This document shows, in pieces, positions 56,625 to 61,650 of a stretch of 64,000 nt of DNA (the stretch's first letter is position 1; each line of letters opens with the position of its first letter). The position numbers were made by a program, and so were the translations under genes. This DNA comes from a virus, in IMG/VR virus record IMGVR_UViG_3300049846_002130, positions 96,001 to 160,000 of that record. The stretch is one strand, 5' to 3'. The notes under the pieces were generated by a model. The model saw nothing but the letters and a program-made list of their open reading frames with translations, was not told where the DNA came from and searched no databases.

Positions 56625-57411
56625 TTAATTTCTCCATATACCAATCTCTAACGATAAGACTCAACAAATCTCTATATAATTCGGGTAACTCTAGTATAGC
56701 TAGATTGTTATAAACATAGTTATATACAGTGCTCTTAAGTTCAATAATGTTTGAAGTATCTAGATAATAATTAGCTTTGTTTAGACCAGTCTGGATAGCC
56801 ACTATATCTTTTAGTTCTGGTATGTCAGTAAAAACAAAAGTTTTAACTACTTTATTATCTTTAATAAAACTAATTGTATTATTGTCACACTTATTAATAA
56901 AAATGTTCTTAATAAGAAAATTAAATTCTTCAATCATCTTGATTAAGATTATTTGTTTGGTTTTGATTTTCTCATTTGTAAGTGTAATACCATGCTGATC
57001 GTAAAATCTTGATATACCATCTTCTGTTATGAGTTTATTAAGTTCACATGGATAGTTAACAGGAATTATTAAGAATGGATACTTCTTGTTAGGTCCAGCT
57101 TCTATATAAACACCAGGAAGTTTATTAGTATCAGAAGGTAGTCTAATACATATGTTATAAGAATCTTTACTAACCTGTAAGGTAAATTTTATCTCTCTAT
57201 TGTCTATATCTAACTTAAATCTAGAGGATAAACAATCTAGCCAATCTCTCTCTGTATCTTCTATAGTATTAGTTGGTTCAGAGCTTTCGTTATTTAATGT
57301 GCTTGCTAATAATAAGCTTAACAAACTAAGGCTACCAACTTTTAGAAGAGTGGAAGAGCCTGTCTTTGTTTTAAGATTGTTTTTAGTCTTAATCTTAGGT
57401 TTTGTTTTCAT
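56608..57411 (-). CDS. hypothetical protein with basic-then-hydrophobic leader
   Basis: MKTKPKIK... followed by LSLLSLLLA. Confidence 0.7.
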   Translation of the reverse strand: MKTKPKIKTKNNLKTKTGSSTLLKVGSLSLLSLLLASTLNNESSEPTNTIEDTERDWLDCLSSRFKLDIDNREIKFTLQVSKDSYNICIRLPSDTNKLPGVYIEAGPNKKYPFLIIPVNYPCELNKLITEDGISRFYDQHGITLTNEKIKTKQIILIKMIEEFNFLIKNIFINKCDNNTISFIKDNKVVKTFVFTDIPELKDIVAIQTGLNKANYYLDTSNIIELKSTVYNYVYNNLAILELPELYRDLLSLIVRDWYMEKLNANPT

Positions 57412-57424
57412 TATTAGCCGGTGG

Positions 57425-58156
57425 TTAAAATGGTATTAAGGGATCAATAGTAATAGATTTAAACTTCTCTAATATAATCCTTGCTGGTTCTTGGTTATGA
57501 GCAACGATACATTCTGAGAAGACAAACAGCCTTGTCAGCTCATCTATCGTAGGAAGGTTTTGACAATTAATTACTTTGTTTCCTATTACAATTTGAATGT
57601 TTTGCCCTTTACGAGAAATTGAGTAAGCTTTGTTATTAAGCTGTCCAGTTACTGATTTAAACGATTCATATTCTTTAACTGAAATAATAGTATGCTCATA
57701 CTTGGTTTCTGGTTGATCATATGGATCTATAGACTTTCCATAAGCTTGTAATTCTTTTATTATTGCTTCTACGTCTACTGGAAAATCAAAGCAAAGCCTA
57801 AAATCTTTTGCATCTAATGCAAGCCACCTATTATCTTCCCAGTCATTCCACAAGAAAAGAATCATTCCTGTTTCTTGATCAATAATTCTAATATCTATTT
57901 CAGACATAACTATATTAAACTTCTTACCATAAATATCAATTATTTTTACATAAGAAAAGGGATCTTCTGCTGAGCCTGTTTCATCAATCCAAAAGCCAGG
58001 TAATGGCTTAATAATACTAGGAGTTGGTAGTGAAAGAGTTATAAGACTAGCTAAACCTAATATAGACAAAAGAGCAAAAGAGTTTTTTGTACTATTAGTT
58101 TTAGTTAAAGACTTTGCTTTACTTTTTGGTTTAATCTTGTTTTTAGCTCTTTGCAT
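57425..58156 (-). CDS. hypothetical protein with basic-then-hydrophobic leader
   Basis: ATG at 58156 with GGAG SD; the track start lies inside a tRNA. Confidence 0.7.
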   Translation of the reverse strand: MQRAKNKIKPKSKAKSLTKTNSTKNSFALLSILGLASLITLSLPTPSIIKPLPGFWIDETGSAEDPFSYVKIIDIYGKKFNIVMSEIDIRIIDQETGMILFLWNDWEDNRWLALDAKDFRLCFDFPVDVEAIIKELQAYGKSIDPYDQPETKYEHTIISVKEYESFKSVTGQLNNKAYSISRKGQNIQIVIGNKVINCQNLPTIDELTRLFVFSECIVAHNQEPARIILEKFKSITIDPLIPF

Positions 58157-58173
58157 TATTTCTCCAATAAAAG

Positions 58174-58263
58174 CGGAAGGCTGAGGACTCGAACCCCATA
58201 CGGCTTTACCCGTACCCAAGCTTTCAAGGCTTGTCGCCGCCCATCGCAGCTGCTTAACCTTCC
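58174..58263 (-). tRNA. tRNA-Ser(UGA), long D arm, can fold 8/4
   Basis: GGAAGGT(T)/(A)GCCTTCC acceptor; CAAGC-CTTGAAA-GCTTG; long V arm; G73. Confidence 0.85.
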
Positions 58264-58268
58264 AATAT

Positions 58269-58354
58269 TAGACCTAATAGGACTCGAACCCCCGGAAGTT
58301 ATTAACTTCAGTGCTTTTCAAGAGCACCATCTTAAACCACTTGATCACAATCCC
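58269..58354 (-). pseudogene. tRNA-Ser(UGA)-like element with mismatched acceptor
   Basis: Intact D, anticodon (GTGCT-CTTGAAA-AGCAC) and V arms; acceptor GGGATTG versus TAGGTCT. Confidence 0.75.
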
Positions 58355-58359
58355 AGTTA

Positions 58360-58737
58360 TTAACAAATATTATCGGGTAATGAAATTATATTAGCATGCA
58401 ATTTCATGTGACAGTTTGCGCATAAGCAAATACACTTAGCCAATTCAGCTTTAAGCTTTAAAGCTGAATAGCTTCCCTTGGCATTACCGATATTAAAATC
58501 TTTTTCGTTTGGATCTAGATGATGAGCAACTAAACAAACGAATTCTTTTTCTGGACAGAGATTGCATCCGTTGGACTTAAAGTCATTAATTATAAGTTTG
58601 TTTCGAATAGCATATTTTTCTCTATTTTTGTTATTACGAATTTTCATTTTTTGATTATATATAGAATCAGTATGATATCTATTATTATAGTATTCTCTAT
58701 TATATTCTTTCCGCTTTTCTTTATCTTTACTAGGCAT
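58360..58737 (-). CDS. free-standing HNH endonuclease
   Basis: CNLC...AHHLDP...KCICLCANCHMKLH. Confidence 0.85.
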   Translation of the reverse strand: MPSKDKEKRKEYNREYYNNRYHTDSIYNQKMKIRNNKNREKYAIRNKLIINDFKSNGCNLCPEKEFVCLVAHHLDPNEKDFNIGNAKGSYSALKLKAELAKCICLCANCHMKLHANIISLPDNIC

Positions 58738-58754
58738 AAAAACTCCTAGTAAAG

Positions 58755-58783
58755 ATTGTATAGAAGACTTAATTTTAAGTCAA
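58755..58783 (-). promoter_or_regulatory. sigma70-type promoter for the HNH gene, with an internal palindrome
   Basis: TTGACT-17 bp-TACAAT; gacttaa-tt-ttaagtc at 58766-58781. Confidence 0.65.
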
Positions 58784-58806
58784 GAATATCAAACTATAAG
58801 TCTAAG

Positions 58807-58880
58807 TGAGAGAGCAGGGATTTGAACCTTGGACCACTTGCTTAACAGGCACAATGCTCTACCACCTGAGCTATAGGTCT
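58807..58880 (-). pseudogene. tRNA-Asn(GUU)-like element with mismatched acceptor
   Basis: Good D arm, CTGTTAA loop and T loop; acceptor AGACCTA versus CTCTCTC. Confidence 0.75.
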
Positions 58881-58883
58881 ATG

Positions 58884-58957
58884 CGGGCCCTCCTGGACTT
58901 GAACCAGGGTATCGCAGCTTAACAGGCTGCTGCCTTTACCGACTTGGCGAAGGGCCC
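58884..58957 (-). tRNA. tRNA-Asn(GUU), no encoded CCA
   Basis: Full 74-nt cloverleaf; GCAGC-CTGTTAA-GCTGC; G73. Confidence 0.92.
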
Positions 58958-61077
58958 TCTAGTTTAGTACTAAACTTTAATTTTTCTTGATCTCTAGTTA
59001 CATAGATTATGTCATTGGCTACATATATACCACCTATGACTTCATTAGATAGTGGATCAAGTAAGTAGTTATTAATTGCTCGCTTTAGTGGACGTCCACC
59101 AAAAGCAGGGTCATAACCTTTATCAACAAGTAGTTCCTTAGCTTCAGGAGTTATTATTAGCTTAAGTTCTTTATCTGCTAATTGTTTTTGTACTTTATGT
59201 AAGTGAATATCTAGTATCTTACTTATATCGGATTTAGTAAGTGGATCAAATATTACTTTACTATCGATTCTATTTAGAATCTCAGGCTTAATAGCTTTAA
59301 GTAATTCAGCTTCAACAGCAGCTGTAGCTTTTTCTCTGTTACCTGCAGCTTCAAATATTTTTACAGAGCCAATATTTGAAGTCATGATGATAACAGTATT
59401 CTTAAAGTCTACGCTCCGGCCACGACTATCAGTTAGCCTGCCTTCATCTAATAGTTGTAAGAAAACATTAAAGACATCTGGGTGCGCCTTCTCTATTTCA
59501 TCAAATAGAACCACAGAGTATGGTCTACGCAATACTGCCTCAGTTAGCTGGCCACCTTCATCATGACCAGCATAACCTGGAGGTGAACCTAGTAATCTAC
59601 TAACAGTATGCTTTTCCATATACTCTGACATATCGATACGAACAATGGCGTTCTCATCATCAAATAAGAACTCAGCCAAAGCCTTTGCTAGCTCAGTCTT
59701 GCCAACACCAGTCGGTCCTAAAAACAAGAAACTACCTGTCGGCCGGTTAGCATCTTGAAGGCCAGCACGGGCTCGTCGGACAGCCTTAGATAAGGCCACA
59801 ATGGCTTCGTGTTGCCCAATAACTCGTTTATGGAGATTATCTTCCATATGCAAAAGCTTCTGAGATTCGCTTTGCTTTAGTTTGTTAACCTTGATGCCTG
59901 TCCACTGACCAATAACCTTTGCTATGTCGTCATAGGAAAGAGCATCCGAAAGAAGTGGTTTCTCACCTTGAACATTAGCTAGATTATTGTTTAGATTCAA
60001 TAATGTTTGTTCAGCTTCAATCAGAGTACTATATCTAATCTTGCTGGCTTGTTCATAATCACCATTAGTTTCAGACTCTTCGGCAATAAGAAAAAGTTCT
60101 TCTATGAGTTCTTTTTGAGAAGCAATCTCATCCAAGATAGTTCTCTCTTGAGACCACTGAAGCTTTAGGTTTGCAAGATCATCTTCTTTTGTTCTAAGCA
60201 AGGCTTTAAGCTTATTGTAAGCAGTTACATTACGATCACTTCTTATAGCTACTTCATTAACCCTAAGAGATATAACTTCTCTTTCTAGTAAATCAATCTC
60301 ATGAGGCTTACTTTCAGATGTAGTCTTTAATAAGCTACAAGCTTCATCAAGTAAGTCAATAGCTTTATCTGGAAGATTTCGTTCAGTTAAGTACCTGTTG
60401 CTTAAAGTAGCTGCAGCTATTAAAGCAGAATCATTAATCTGAATACCATGATAGGTTTCGAACTTCTCTTTTAGGCCTCGTAGGATTTGCAGGGTTACAT
60501 CAACACTTGGAGCATTAATAAATACTGCCTGGAATCTACGATCTAATGTTTTATTCTTTTCGAAGGTCTTCTTATATTCATCAATACTAGTTGTACCAAT
60601 CACCCTAAGGTTGCTTCTAGATAGACTATCCTCAAGCATACTGCTTGCATCAACTCCACCCTCAGACTTACCAGCACCAACAATATTATGAATATTATCT
60701 AGAAAAAGAATTAAGTCATCGCTCCTAGATTCTAATTCTCTAAGAAGTTTAAGTAGTCGTTCTTCGAATTCACCTCTATAACTAGCCCCAGCTAGAAGAC
60801 TAGCTATATCTAGGGATAGAATTTTTTTATTCTTTAGATATTCTGGGACATCCTCAACTACAATTCTTTGAGCAAGGCCATAAACTATAGTGGTCTTACC
60901 TACACCAGAAGCTCCTATTAAAATAGGATTATTCTTAGATCTACGAGTAAGAATCTGAATAACTCTTCGAATCTCTTCATCTCTACCAATTGTGGGATCA
61001 AGTAAATCTTCTTCAGCTAAAGCTGTAATATTCTTACAGTAGCGAGCAACAATATCTTCCTTAGCTGACTTGGTCAT
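58936..61077 (-). CDS. clpB: ClpB-like disaggregase lacking the N-terminal domain
   Basis: Two NBDs (GASGVGKT, GPTGVGKT) with a middle coiled coil. ATG at 61077 has GGAG SD; the track start reads through a tRNA. Confidence 0.93.
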   Translation of the reverse strand: MTKSAKEDIVARYCKNITALAEEDLLDPTIGRDEEIRRVIQILTRRSKNNPILIGASGVGKTTIVYGLAQRIVVEDVPEYLKNKKILSLDIASLLAGASYRGEFEERLLKLLRELESRSDDLILFLDNIHNIVGAGKSEGGVDASSMLEDSLSRSNLRVIGTTSIDEYKKTFEKNKTLDRRFQAVFINAPSVDVTLQILRGLKEKFETYHGIQINDSALIAAATLSNRYLTERNLPDKAIDLLDEACSLLKTTSESKPHEIDLLEREVISLRVNEVAIRSDRNVTAYNKLKALLRTKEDDLANLKLQWSQERTILDEIASQKELIEELFLIAEESETNGDYEQASKIRYSTLIEAEQTLLNLNNNLANVQGEKPLLSDALSYDDIAKVIGQWTGIKVNKLKQSESQKLLHMEDNLHKRVIGQHEAIVALSKAVRRARAGLQDANRPTGSFLFLGPTGVGKTELAKALAEFLFDDENAIVRIDMSEYMEKHTVSRLLGSPPGYAGHDEGGQLTEAVLRRPYSVVLFDEIEKAHPDVFNVFLQLLDEGRLTDSRGRSVDFKNTVIIMTSNIGSVKIFEAAGNREKATAAVEAELLKAIKPEILNRIDSKVIFDPLTKSDISKILDIHLHKVQKQLADKELKLIITPEAKELLVDKGYDPAFGGRPLKRAINNYLLDPLSNEVIGGIYVANDIIYVTRDQEKLKFSTKLEGPSPSR

Positions 61078-61109
61078 ATGCACTCCAATCAATATAAGCT
61101 TATTATAAA

Positions 61110-61193
61110 CGGAGCCGGCAGGATTCGAACCTACGATAGTGTTACTATGGTTGTTTAGCAAACAACTGGTTTAAGCCACTCACCCACAGCTCC
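61110..61193 (-). tRNA. tRNA-Ser(GCU), no encoded CCA
   Basis: Full 84-nt cloverleaf; GTTGT-TTGCTAA-ACAAC; long V arm. Confidence 0.92.
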
Positions 61194-61200
61194 AATGAGA

Positions 61201-61650
61201 CTAGCTTTTCTTTGAATCTCTAATCTCCACATATATCCTGGCGACTACCTTTGCAGAAAGCCTGTCTACAGCATCTTTATATGCTACTGCTGTCCACTTA
61301 TCTTTAATATGAGTGGAAAGATCTTCTATTGATCCACTTTTATATACCTCGTTATCATCTATAACTACATGCTTAAAACTATTACTATCTCTATCATAAT
61401 AATAGTCTGTATAACTATACTGCTTAGGTAGTACCTGTAATCTATCTTCTAGAAATCCATAGTAAAATAGTTCATCAAAGAGTTTACGTTCTTTTTGTTC
61501 CTTAGTTTCTGCTAACTCTGTGTTAGCAGCCCACAATAAACCAACAAGGCTAGCAAAGCCCAAGATTTTAGTTGCAGAGTTTACTTTTTGTTCATTCTTA
61601 ACTAACAATTTGGTTTCTTGCTTAGCTTTAGGTTTTAAATTGTTACCCAA
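61201..61650 (-). CDS. hypothetical protein with basic-then-hydrophobic leader
   Basis: LKPKAK... followed by ILGFASLVGLLWA. Confidence 0.65.
   Translation of the reverse strand: MGNNLKPKAKQETKLLVKNEQKVNSATKILGFASLVGLLWAANTELAETKEQKERKLFDELFYYGFLEDRLQVLPKQYSYTDYYYDRDSNSFKHVVIDDNEVYKSGSIEDLSTHIKDKWTAVAYKDAVDRLSAKVVARIYVEIRDSKKS

Follow-up and report, generated by a model that had tools for sequence, protein, structure and literature searches.

Organisation of the locus

We describe a small transfer RNA (tRNA) array with an embedded HNH endonuclease gene, located in a phage genome that is deposited as IMG/VR virus record IMGVR_UViG_3300049846_002130. The genome is complete, with direct terminal repeats, a length of 183.5 kb and a G+C content of 40%; the window, i.e. 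the whole stretch of 64,000 nucleotides that was analysed, comprises bases 96001-160000, and coordinates refer to it unless they are marked as genome coordinates. The locus is encoded on the minus strand between a ClpB-like open reading frame (ORF) and an ORF of 243 amino acids (aa) and reads, in minus-strand order, tRNA-Asn, a degenerate Asn-like tRNA, the HNH gene, a degenerate Ser-like tRNA and tRNA-Ser(UGA). This order and all coordinates had been given in an earlier description of the same letters, here called the original prediction, and held on re-checking; each broken tRNA indeed adjoins an intact tRNA with the same anticodon, Asn(GTT) in one case and Ser(TGA) in the other. The features are as follows.

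58957-58884, minus strand: intact tRNA-Asn(GTT), 62% G+C, called by ARAGORN, 62.4 bits with the Rfam tRNA model; the minimum free energy (MFE) fold is a cloverleaf (z score -3.2)
58880-58807, minus strand: broken Asn-like tRNA, a chimera; Rfam 29.2 bits, model positions 8-63 only
58814-58277, minus strand: minimal inserted segment of 538 bp, 31% G+C, under the assumption that both junctions lie at the boundary between T arm and 3' acceptor strand
58804-58794, minus strand: second copy (11 nt) of the 5' end of the presumed split tRNA, TAGACTTATAG, within the insert
58783-58755, minus strand: predicted HNH promoter TTGACT-17-TACAAT, sigma-70-like, 10/12 match
58756-58723, minus strand: perfect 12-bp hairpin over the ribosome-binding site, from an inverted-repeat search
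58737-58360, minus strand: free-standing HNH gene, 125 aa, full length, assigned to PHROG HNH families
58354-58269, minus strand: broken Ser(TGA)-like tRNA, a chimera; Rfam 30.3 bits, with non-canonical acceptor and T-stem pairs
58263-58175, minus strand: intact tRNA-Ser(TGA), 58% G+C, called by ARAGORN, MFE fold a cloverleaf (z score -2.2), with an unusual D arm

The 538-bp segment contains a foreign tRNA tail, the 11-nt stub, the promoter, the HNH gene and positions 1-65 of the Ser-like tRNA. Its base composition was considered as a sign of foreign origin and abandoned as uninformative, since 31% G+C resembles that of neighbouring phage ORFs. Contigs from four other samples carry the locus at 100% identity, three of them span the entire cassette, and no sequence variant was seen among them. 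The samples SRR35532381, SRR35181285, JGI 3300043395 and JGI 3300047546 contain this phage. The locus is therefore not an assembly artefact; the arrangement is real and, as far as sampled, fixed.

The two degenerate tRNAs are broken chimeras

The Asn-like gene begins with an Ile-type 5' acceptor strand, AGACCTA (58880-58874), which is followed by D and anticodon arms of Asn type (GTT). Its anticodon arm and variable loop are those of a tRNA-Asn, and its body is 86% identical to tRNA-Asn genes of Rhizobium and Vibrio phages. The anticodon stem has a 1-nt bulge and the T arm an A.C mismatch; the 3' tail CTCTCTC-A (58814-58807) is unrelated to the rest of the gene and forms no Watson-Crick pair in the acceptor. 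ARAGORN makes no call on this gene, even when relaxed to ps90.

In the Ser-like gene the D, anticodon and variable arms are perfect up to the T loop. Past the T loop the gene continues with a foreign 3' strand of the T stem, CCTAT, and with the Ile-type acceptor strand TAGGTCT (58276-58270) and A73 (58269). Neither CCTAT nor TAGGTCT-A fits the 5' strands of this gene, and CCTAT is the T-stem strand of another tRNA in this phage. The acceptor that the gene can form on its own comprises two Watson-Crick and four G.U pairs. Folding gave z scores of +0.7 for the broken Asn and -0.1 for the broken Ser gene and a cloverleaf for neither; the two intact genes both fold into cloverleaves, at the values listed above. 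Judged by a paired acceptor, intact T and anticodon stems and a cloverleaf fold, neither chimera is a functional tRNA.

One could nevertheless imagine the broken Ser gene as a working hybrid, in which the 5' part brought by the cassette wobble-pairs with the 3' end of the gene that was entered and still yields a tRNA-Ser(UGA). ARAGORN and Rfam still call it (30.3 bits at a threshold of 29 bits), three of its arms are perfect, and other members of the HNH family end in an intact downstream tRNA or a few bases before one. However, the acceptor contains a mismatch besides its two Watson-Crick and four G.U pairs, the T stem consists of two Watson-Crick pairs, two G.U pairs and one mismatch, the MFE fold is no cloverleaf and no more stable than shuffled sequences, and an intact tRNA-Ser(UGA) follows only 5 nt downstream. 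We regard a working hybrid as very unlikely. A related idea, that wobble pairs had preserved the stems of the broken Ser gene, was rejected: the pairing is not significant in comparison with the other 3' strands of the genome on the same G-rich strand.

Some further properties of the Ser genes may be recorded here. The Rfam tRNA-Sec model scores the intact tRNA-Ser(TGA) (58175-58263) at 36 bits, which is below its threshold yet above the score of the tRNA model. The nearest DNA matches of this gene are tRNA-Ser genes of high-G+C actinophages; the body of the broken Ser gene resembles tRNA-Ser of low-G+C Bacillus and Listeria phages. A 10-nt direct repeat, GTTAATAACT (minus strand), is present across the double stop of the HNH gene (58355-58364) and in the variable arm of the broken Ser gene (58297-58306), and may be due to chance in AT-rich DNA.

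Complementary acceptor strands

The 5' end of the broken Asn gene, TAGACCTA (58881-58874, tRNA positions 0-7), and the 3' end of the broken Ser gene, TAGGTCTA (58276-58269, positions 66-73), are exact complements. AGACCTA and TAGGTCT alone form seven of seven Watson-Crick pairs between positions 1-7 and 66-72. The perfect cross-complementarity at a distance of about 600 nt, reported in the original prediction, is thereby borne out, together with three further pairs (TAG/CTA) past a 1-nt bulge and the spacing of 538 bp between the T loops (58814-58277). At the base composition of the genome, seven Watson-Crick pairs at fixed positions have a probability of ~8e-5; the four local tRNAs allow 12 cross-pairings, and with these taken into account the value rises to ~1e-3. 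When all 14 tRNA-like genes of the phage were compared with one another, the only other seven-of-seven cross-pairs were those between tRNA-Asn and tRNA-Met, which have the same stem. AGACCTA was also considered as a genome-wide motif, an idea rejected by its copy number (28 on both strands, ~24 expected).

The reciprocal pairing did not fare as well. GGGATTG of the broken Ser gene had been thought to pair better with CTCTCTC than with its own partner; the two strands form four Watson-Crick pairs and one G.U pair, and of the 13 remaining 3' strands of the genome, 6 match GGGATTG equally well or better, which is chance level.

Could the perfect match itself be a coincidence between two independently decayed tRNA duplicates? 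Only one genome is at hand and short stems can match randomly. Yet the probability of ~1e-3 already takes the local cross-pairings into account, the stem belongs to a natural tRNA acceptor type (see below), and a second copy of the 5' end lies 77 nt off, with the 11-mer occurring nowhere else in the genome. Coincidence is hardly credible to us.

The original prediction had also offered a reading at the RNA level, with a composite tRNA that loops out the HNH mRNA or a switch. In a read-through transcript the helix UAGACCUA/UAGGUCUA would close a domain of 612 nt and produce the composite, or act as a processing or regulatory switch for the HNH mRNA. The helix is present in the MFE and centroid folds of 58884-58266, this stretch is more stable than shuffled sequences (z score -3.7), and tRNA-like ends could recruit RNase P. 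On the other hand, the folded fragment was cut exactly at both strands, which favours pairing of its ends, and the Asn body that would have to serve in the composite is decayed, with its bulged anticodon stem and its T-stem mismatch. Rfam detects no intron or ribozyme in 57500-61500 (cmscan, E up to 1). Furthermore, a translated transcript would not contain the 5' strand because the HNH promoter is located downstream of it and of the broken Asn gene. This reading is not supported, and we consider it highly improbable.

Identity of the presumed split gene

To which kind of tRNA do the complementary strands belong? The pattern AGACYTA+TAGCTCAG...TARGTCTA was searched in viral and metagenomic contigs and retrieved 2 viral and 19 metagenomic loci. 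All 21 are tRNAs, namely 19 tRNA-Ile (GAT or TAT), two tRNA-Val and no tRNA-Asn. The pair 5:68 occurs among them as C:G, as T:A and in wobble forms, and both C:G and T:A are found in the present locus. Judged from these sequences, AGACCTA/TAGGTCT is a natural, covarying acceptor of Ile type with A73. That the split gene was an ordinary tRNA-Asn, as first proposed, is not supported by this distribution of stem and discriminator. The acceptor combined with the anticodon-loop pattern CTGWTAA gave only non-tRNA chance matches in IMG/VR and bacterial genomes. In two viral or metagenomic arrays (L099:7129-7787 and L113:2082-2740, the tRNA of the latter at L113:2082-2156) a natural tRNA-Ile(GAT) with AGACCTA/TAGGTCT is immediately followed by an antisense HNH gene of 188 aa, the CxxC-rich N-terminal region of which is of the same type as in the second HNH gene of our phage (see below).

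The broken Asn gene has TAGACCTATAG (58881-58871) at its 5' end, of which the 11-nt stub TAGACTTATAG (58804-58794) is a direct repeat in the T:A version, and AGACTTA is a naturally occurring variant of the Ile-type stem. TAGACYTATAG occurs twice in the 183.5-kb genome, both times at this locus. A 'mini tRNA' hairpin of the stub with TAAGTCT was dropped, as folding prefers the promoter palindrome GACTTA/TAAGTC; the direct repeat was retained. When the flanks of the insert are joined, ARAGORN calls the composite a tRNA-Asn up to ps110, i.e. beyond the intact tRNA-Ser. The most plausible reading of the complementary strands is that they are the opposite ends of a single former tRNA gene, split by an HNH-bearing insert.

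The foreign tail at the left junction points elsewhere. Among 80 examined matches to CTCTCTC-A, 26 could be classified, as Arg, Tyr, Leu or Cys; none is a tRNA-Asn or a tRNA-Ser. This result bears on the crossover that the original prediction had placed first: a circle of 538 bp, made up of the HNH gene and a tRNA-Ser GGGATTG...CTCTCTC, would have entered a tRNA-Asn AGACCTA...TAGGTCT by one recombination event close to the T loops. The topology of the product is as observed, the T loops being 538 bp apart, and such a crossover gives the same product as the pasting of a 538-bp piece of an array. ARAGORN still calls the two swapped composites at thresholds that the native arrangements no longer pass. 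The tandem units of 718 bp (tRNA and segB) that arise and collapse under SegB in phage T6 make small circles plausible intermediates (PMC13096335). The predicted whole tRNA-Ser fails, however: the tail, with no Ser among its 26 classified matches, and the Ser head are unlike parts of one tRNA, GGGATTG and CTCTCTC pair as is ordinary for a G-rich strand, and the rebuilt gene would carry two imperfect stems. The circle leaves the second TAGACTTATAG stub within the insert and the Ile-type acceptor on an Asn body unexplained, and the sequence common to both junctions does not exceed the universal T-loop motif. We therefore consider an origin from a circle unlikely.

The HNH gene and its expression signals

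The 125-aa ORF matches PHROG HNH families with E values of 1e-21 and 1e-20 and has kept 15 of the 15 invariant family residues (CxxC, HH, N, CxxCH, H). C58, C61, H72, H73, N108, C106, C109, H110 and H114, invariant in 14 family members, are all present. Among its homologs are proteins with 45-53% identity. Pfam gives no match for the ORF at E 0.01, and family members reach HNH_2 (1e-3) and HNH (0.011) weakly. Compared with solved structures, the family profile finds the HNH region of McrA (6ghc), again weakly (E 0.016).

TTGACT-17-TACAAT is the best sigma-70-like match in 57300-61400, with 10 of 12 positions. A palindrome, GACTTA-AAAT-TAAGTC (58781-58766), spans its -35 box and spacer and forms a local hairpin in the folds. 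The perfect 12-bp hairpin further downstream covers the Shine-Dalgarno sequence AGGAG (58747-58743) in part and has the ATG (58737-58735) in its loop. The -10 box of the promoter overlaps the 5' arm of this hairpin; transcripts from the promoter, given the inferred transcription start, should therefore lack the arm and be translatable, and read-through from the array should be silent. The HNH gene is intact, and these signals suggest that it is alive and transcribed from its own predicted promoter. It is not part of an intron or intein and carries expression signals of its own, as is characteristic of a free-standing homing endonuclease.

Other frames of the insert code for 30-32 aa, so that HNH is its sole sizeable ORF and no recombinase is present in it. 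Neither the ClpB-like nor the 243-aa ORF at the flanks has a match of recombinase type, and a repeated att core is missing, as no direct repeat beyond the T-loop motif occurs at the junctions. The suggestion that no integrase is involved is supported by these searches; the established name for what had been called an integrase-free tRNA-targeting mini-element would be a free-standing homing endonuclease cassette.

Members of the HNH family reside in tRNA arrays

Homologs with 35-53% identity were placed on contigs, and in six of the seven metagenomic contexts with DNA they have tRNA genes within ~130 nt on their own strand. Homologs with 43-47% identity are also encoded within the tRNA arrays of Erwinia phage Hena1 (MN732867) and Escherichia phage SUSP1 (NC_028808), and the family also occurs in cultured Salmonella phages. 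The homologs are scattered across unrelated phage tRNA arrays. The stop codon of one of them (L093) is located inside the next tRNA. Another (L096) starts 3 nt past a tRNA and is followed, after its stop, by an orphan T-arm fragment.

The latter case deserves a closer description. It is found on a 196-kb contig (L096:1474-2015), where the HNH homolog reads through only if TAG is translated as Q. The tRNA that ends 3 nt upstream of the HNH start is 85 nt long and combines the anticodon GTT with a long variable arm. The orphan fragment after the HNH stop consists of a T arm and a 3' strand, GGTTCGAGTCCTAT..., and the same 14-mer is present at the junction of the broken Ser gene of our phage.

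A scan of our whole genome with Rfam yielded eight strong tRNA hits and three marginal ones (29-30 bits), and all three marginal hits adjoin HNH genes. Two more HNH genes are present in the genome, both beside tRNAs. In one of the marginal tRNA-like genes (genome 180291-180364, minus strand, 30.4 bits) the acceptor and T arms are well formed and the anticodon arm is UCU-like, and no D arm could be recognised. The probable ATG of the second, divergent HNH gene (~205 aa, several CxxC pairs) is 10 nt away from this tRNA-like gene. Group I introns are uncommon in phage tRNA genes. The genome nevertheless contains one in the anticodon loop of a tRNA gene at genome 182089-182409 (minus strand) with the acceptor GGGCTGT/ACGGCCC and the T arm ATAGG/CCTAT; the intron scores 67.9 bits in Rfam (L088:12153-12380).

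A model for the origin of the locus

On balance, we think that the locus probably records, as a scar, the entry of a free-standing HNH homing endonuclease cassette into a resident tRNA gene, with two non-functional chimeras left behind. The resident gene, X, would have had the stem AGACCTA/TAGGTCT and the discriminator A. A double-strand break in or beside its conserved arms is the most likely way in which X would have been broken, and the break would have been repaired with a piece from the tRNA array of a related phage. On this donor piece, the end of a tRNA may have been followed by an 11-nt remnant of the X gene of the donor, by the promoter and the HNH gene, and by most of a tRNA-Ser(UGA), and the ends of X would now flank about 540-590 bp of foreign DNA. 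In this history the junction products, the broken Asn and broken Ser genes, would be dead chimeras and the neighbouring G+C-rich tRNA-Asn and tRNA-Ser would supply the function. HNH would be translated only from the short transcript of its own promoter, with read-through RNA folding the hairpin over the ribosome-binding site. The junctions appear to lie at conserved tRNA motifs, and the locus looks like a mis-targeted or ectopic landing. In this account the anatomy, the intact HNH gene, the preference of its family for tRNA arrays and the broken state of the chimeras are observed; the cutting, the donor and the order of events are inferred.

Two versions of this history are conceivable. In the first, (a), both junctions would be at 65/66, the boundary of T arm and 3' acceptor strand, with an insert of 538 bp and an Asn-bodied X. 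In the second, (b), the shared D arm would contain the left junction and the T loop the right one, and X would have been a tRNA-Ile whose interior was lost. The two fit equally well and each requires one pre-existing mosaic tRNA; the tail CTCTCTC-A, with no Asn or Ser among 26, lends no support to (b).

Several observations weigh against the history of a cassette in a split gene. T-stem pairing leaves the junctions unfixed, the T stem of the broken Asn gene having four of five pairs with its present strand and three of five with the swapped one. Intact copies with the same anticodons flank the broken genes externally: the tRNA-like pieces within the cassette are truncated and chimeric, and the intact tRNA-Asn and tRNA-Ser are outside the split ends. 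The tail CTCTCTC-A, Arg/Tyr-type in viral contigs, fits neither Asn nor Ser, and at least one mosaic tRNA must therefore have pre-dated the event. The tRNA-Asn and tRNA-Met of this phage share the identical acceptor stem GGGCCCT/AGGGCCC; shared stems between different tRNAs are thus normal here, and the AGACCTA/TAGGTCT match could reflect paralogy instead of one split gene. Finally, the collections contain no related phage, and no empty site, donor array or polymorphism was seen in them.

The paralogy argument leads to an explanation that needs no swap. A tRNA family with AGACCTA/TAGGTCT would have had an Asn and a Ser member on either side of HNH, and each of them would have lost one strand by separate decay or conversion. 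Stems that cross isotypes do exist here (identical in tRNA-Asn and tRNA-Met, related in tRNA-Leu and the intron-bearing tRNA), most differences between GGGATTG and AGACCTA are transitions, by which G.U pairing with TAGGTCT is retained, and a third copy of the 5' strand is nearby. This explanation has to assume two independent strand replacements at mirror positions, however, and point decay does not account for CTCTCTC, which differs from TAGGTCT at all seven positions. Two unrelated 3' strands of the genome reach the same score as the broken Ser stem, in which six of seven positions are 'pairable'. We judge separate decay to be improbable.

As for the stems themselves, GGGCCCT/AGGGCCC is common to tRNA-Asn(GTT) (window 58884-58957) and a tRNA with the anticodon CAT (genome 181691-181764), and tRNA-Leu(TAA) and the intron-bearing tRNA have closely related acceptors. 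That several isotypes have stems in common suggests duplication with a change of anticodon, or conversion between tRNA genes.

The 5' end of the broken Asn gene, used as an exact query, had no hits, and a donor-type junction (CTCTCTCA then AGACYTATAG) had nine, all random and outside tRNAs. The neighbouring genes did not lead to relatives either. The 243-aa ORF has no match in IMG/VR and matches itself alone among 5.8 billion proteins, and the ClpB-like gene has its best relatives at 51% identity, which for this reason are no kin of the phage. The ClpB-like ORF extends 22 nt into tRNA-Asn (58936-58957), its last seven codons and TAA stop being the acceptor strand and D arm of the tRNA; the natural C-terminus of the protein may have been replaced upon arrival of the tRNA.

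Comparison with known systems

A free-standing homing endonuclease in a phage tRNA cluster is an established kind of element. Phage T5 has small HNH ORFs, termed F-Tfl, among its tRNA genes; their sites are in tRNA genes of relatives that do not have the ORF, and they are reported to be nicking enzymes. By description, the present HNH gene is like these small ORFs scattered among phage tRNA genes. We know of no description of split or chimeric tRNAs flanking the F-Tfl ORFs. F-TflI, F-TflII and F-TflIV are listed as HNH endonuclease ORFs of the T5 tRNA region (PMC2330249).

SegB of phage T4 recognises the T-loop motif GGTTCRANTCC, cuts the 3' ends of tRNA genes beside this motif with a preference for tRNA-Asn, and drives homing and co-conversion of the tRNA region (PMC2330249). 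It also brings about rearrangements of tRNA segments that depend on recombination (PMC2330249; PMC13096335). In phage T6 it drives the recombination-dependent amplification of a 718-bp unit that holds a tRNA and segB (PMC13096335). As in T4 and T6, the nuclease gene of our phage is situated between tRNA genes and on their strand, and the scars are in that part of the gene that SegB cuts. A hairpin would occlude the ribosome-binding site in both systems; this type of control is found for I-TevI, I-TevII, I-TevIII and MobE, and a similar one was proposed for segB (PMC2330249). SegB, however, is a GIY-YIG enzyme, and ours is a predicted HNH nuclease with a putative cleavage activity. In T4 the tRNAs on either side are kept intact; in our phage the two neighbours of the nuclease gene are dead chimeras and a tRNA gene appears to be split. 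In addition, segB has no proximal promoter (PMC2330249), unlike the gene described here.

The homologs of Hena1 and SUSP1 belong to the same protein family and reside inside same-strand arrays of 12-16 tRNAs. In Hena1 the end of the ORF overlaps the next tRNA. Both HNH genes are known as annotations, and the flanking tRNAs are annotated as intact, in contrast to ours.

Genomic islands and prophages that depend on integrases insert in tRNA genes, with crossovers at the anticodon loop, the T loop or the 3' end. The present locus shares with them the tRNA gene as docking site and the hybrid tRNA ends at both junctions. It differs by the missing integrase or recombinase gene, the missing att core, an insert of only ~0.54 kb and a tRNA that is not restored. 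A group I intron with its homing endonuclease likewise combines a mobile nuclease with an interrupted tRNA gene, and the phage has such an intron in another tRNA; here, however, Rfam finds none, the interruption is outside the anticodon loop and nothing suggests splicing. Our literature searches found no case in which an HNH cassette had split a tRNA gene with chimeric pseudo-tRNAs as a result.

Implications

A more far-reaching version of the cassette model is that the HNH enzyme cuts many tRNA genes at the boundary of T arm and 3' acceptor strand, and that the 538-bp piece between two cuts, in linear or circular form, enters a third tRNA gene of other identity. We put this forward tentatively and regard it as rather doubtful. 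If it is true, tRNA genes would be universal, homology-poor docking sites for an integrase-free cassette, and phage arrays would possess a cut-and-paste route by which acceptor strands are shuffled and mosaic tRNAs are built.

It is known that tRNA genes are spread by the homing endonucleases of phage tRNA clusters, such as SegB, and, as of 2026, that these enzymes also amplify them as counter-defence. The traces that such nucleases leave in the sequence are poorly documented. The present locus offers scars at base resolution: what is best read as a split tRNA gene, two chimeric pseudo-tRNAs, junctions at universal motifs and a putative donor stub. It also provides a tRNA with the AGACCTA/TAGGTCT stem as a concrete candidate target for an uncharacterised HNH family. 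If the cassette model is true, nucleases of this kind would not only spread tRNA genes but also break and shuffle them, giving rise to mosaic acceptor stems, and this would help to explain why tRNAs of different identity carry identical stems in this phage.

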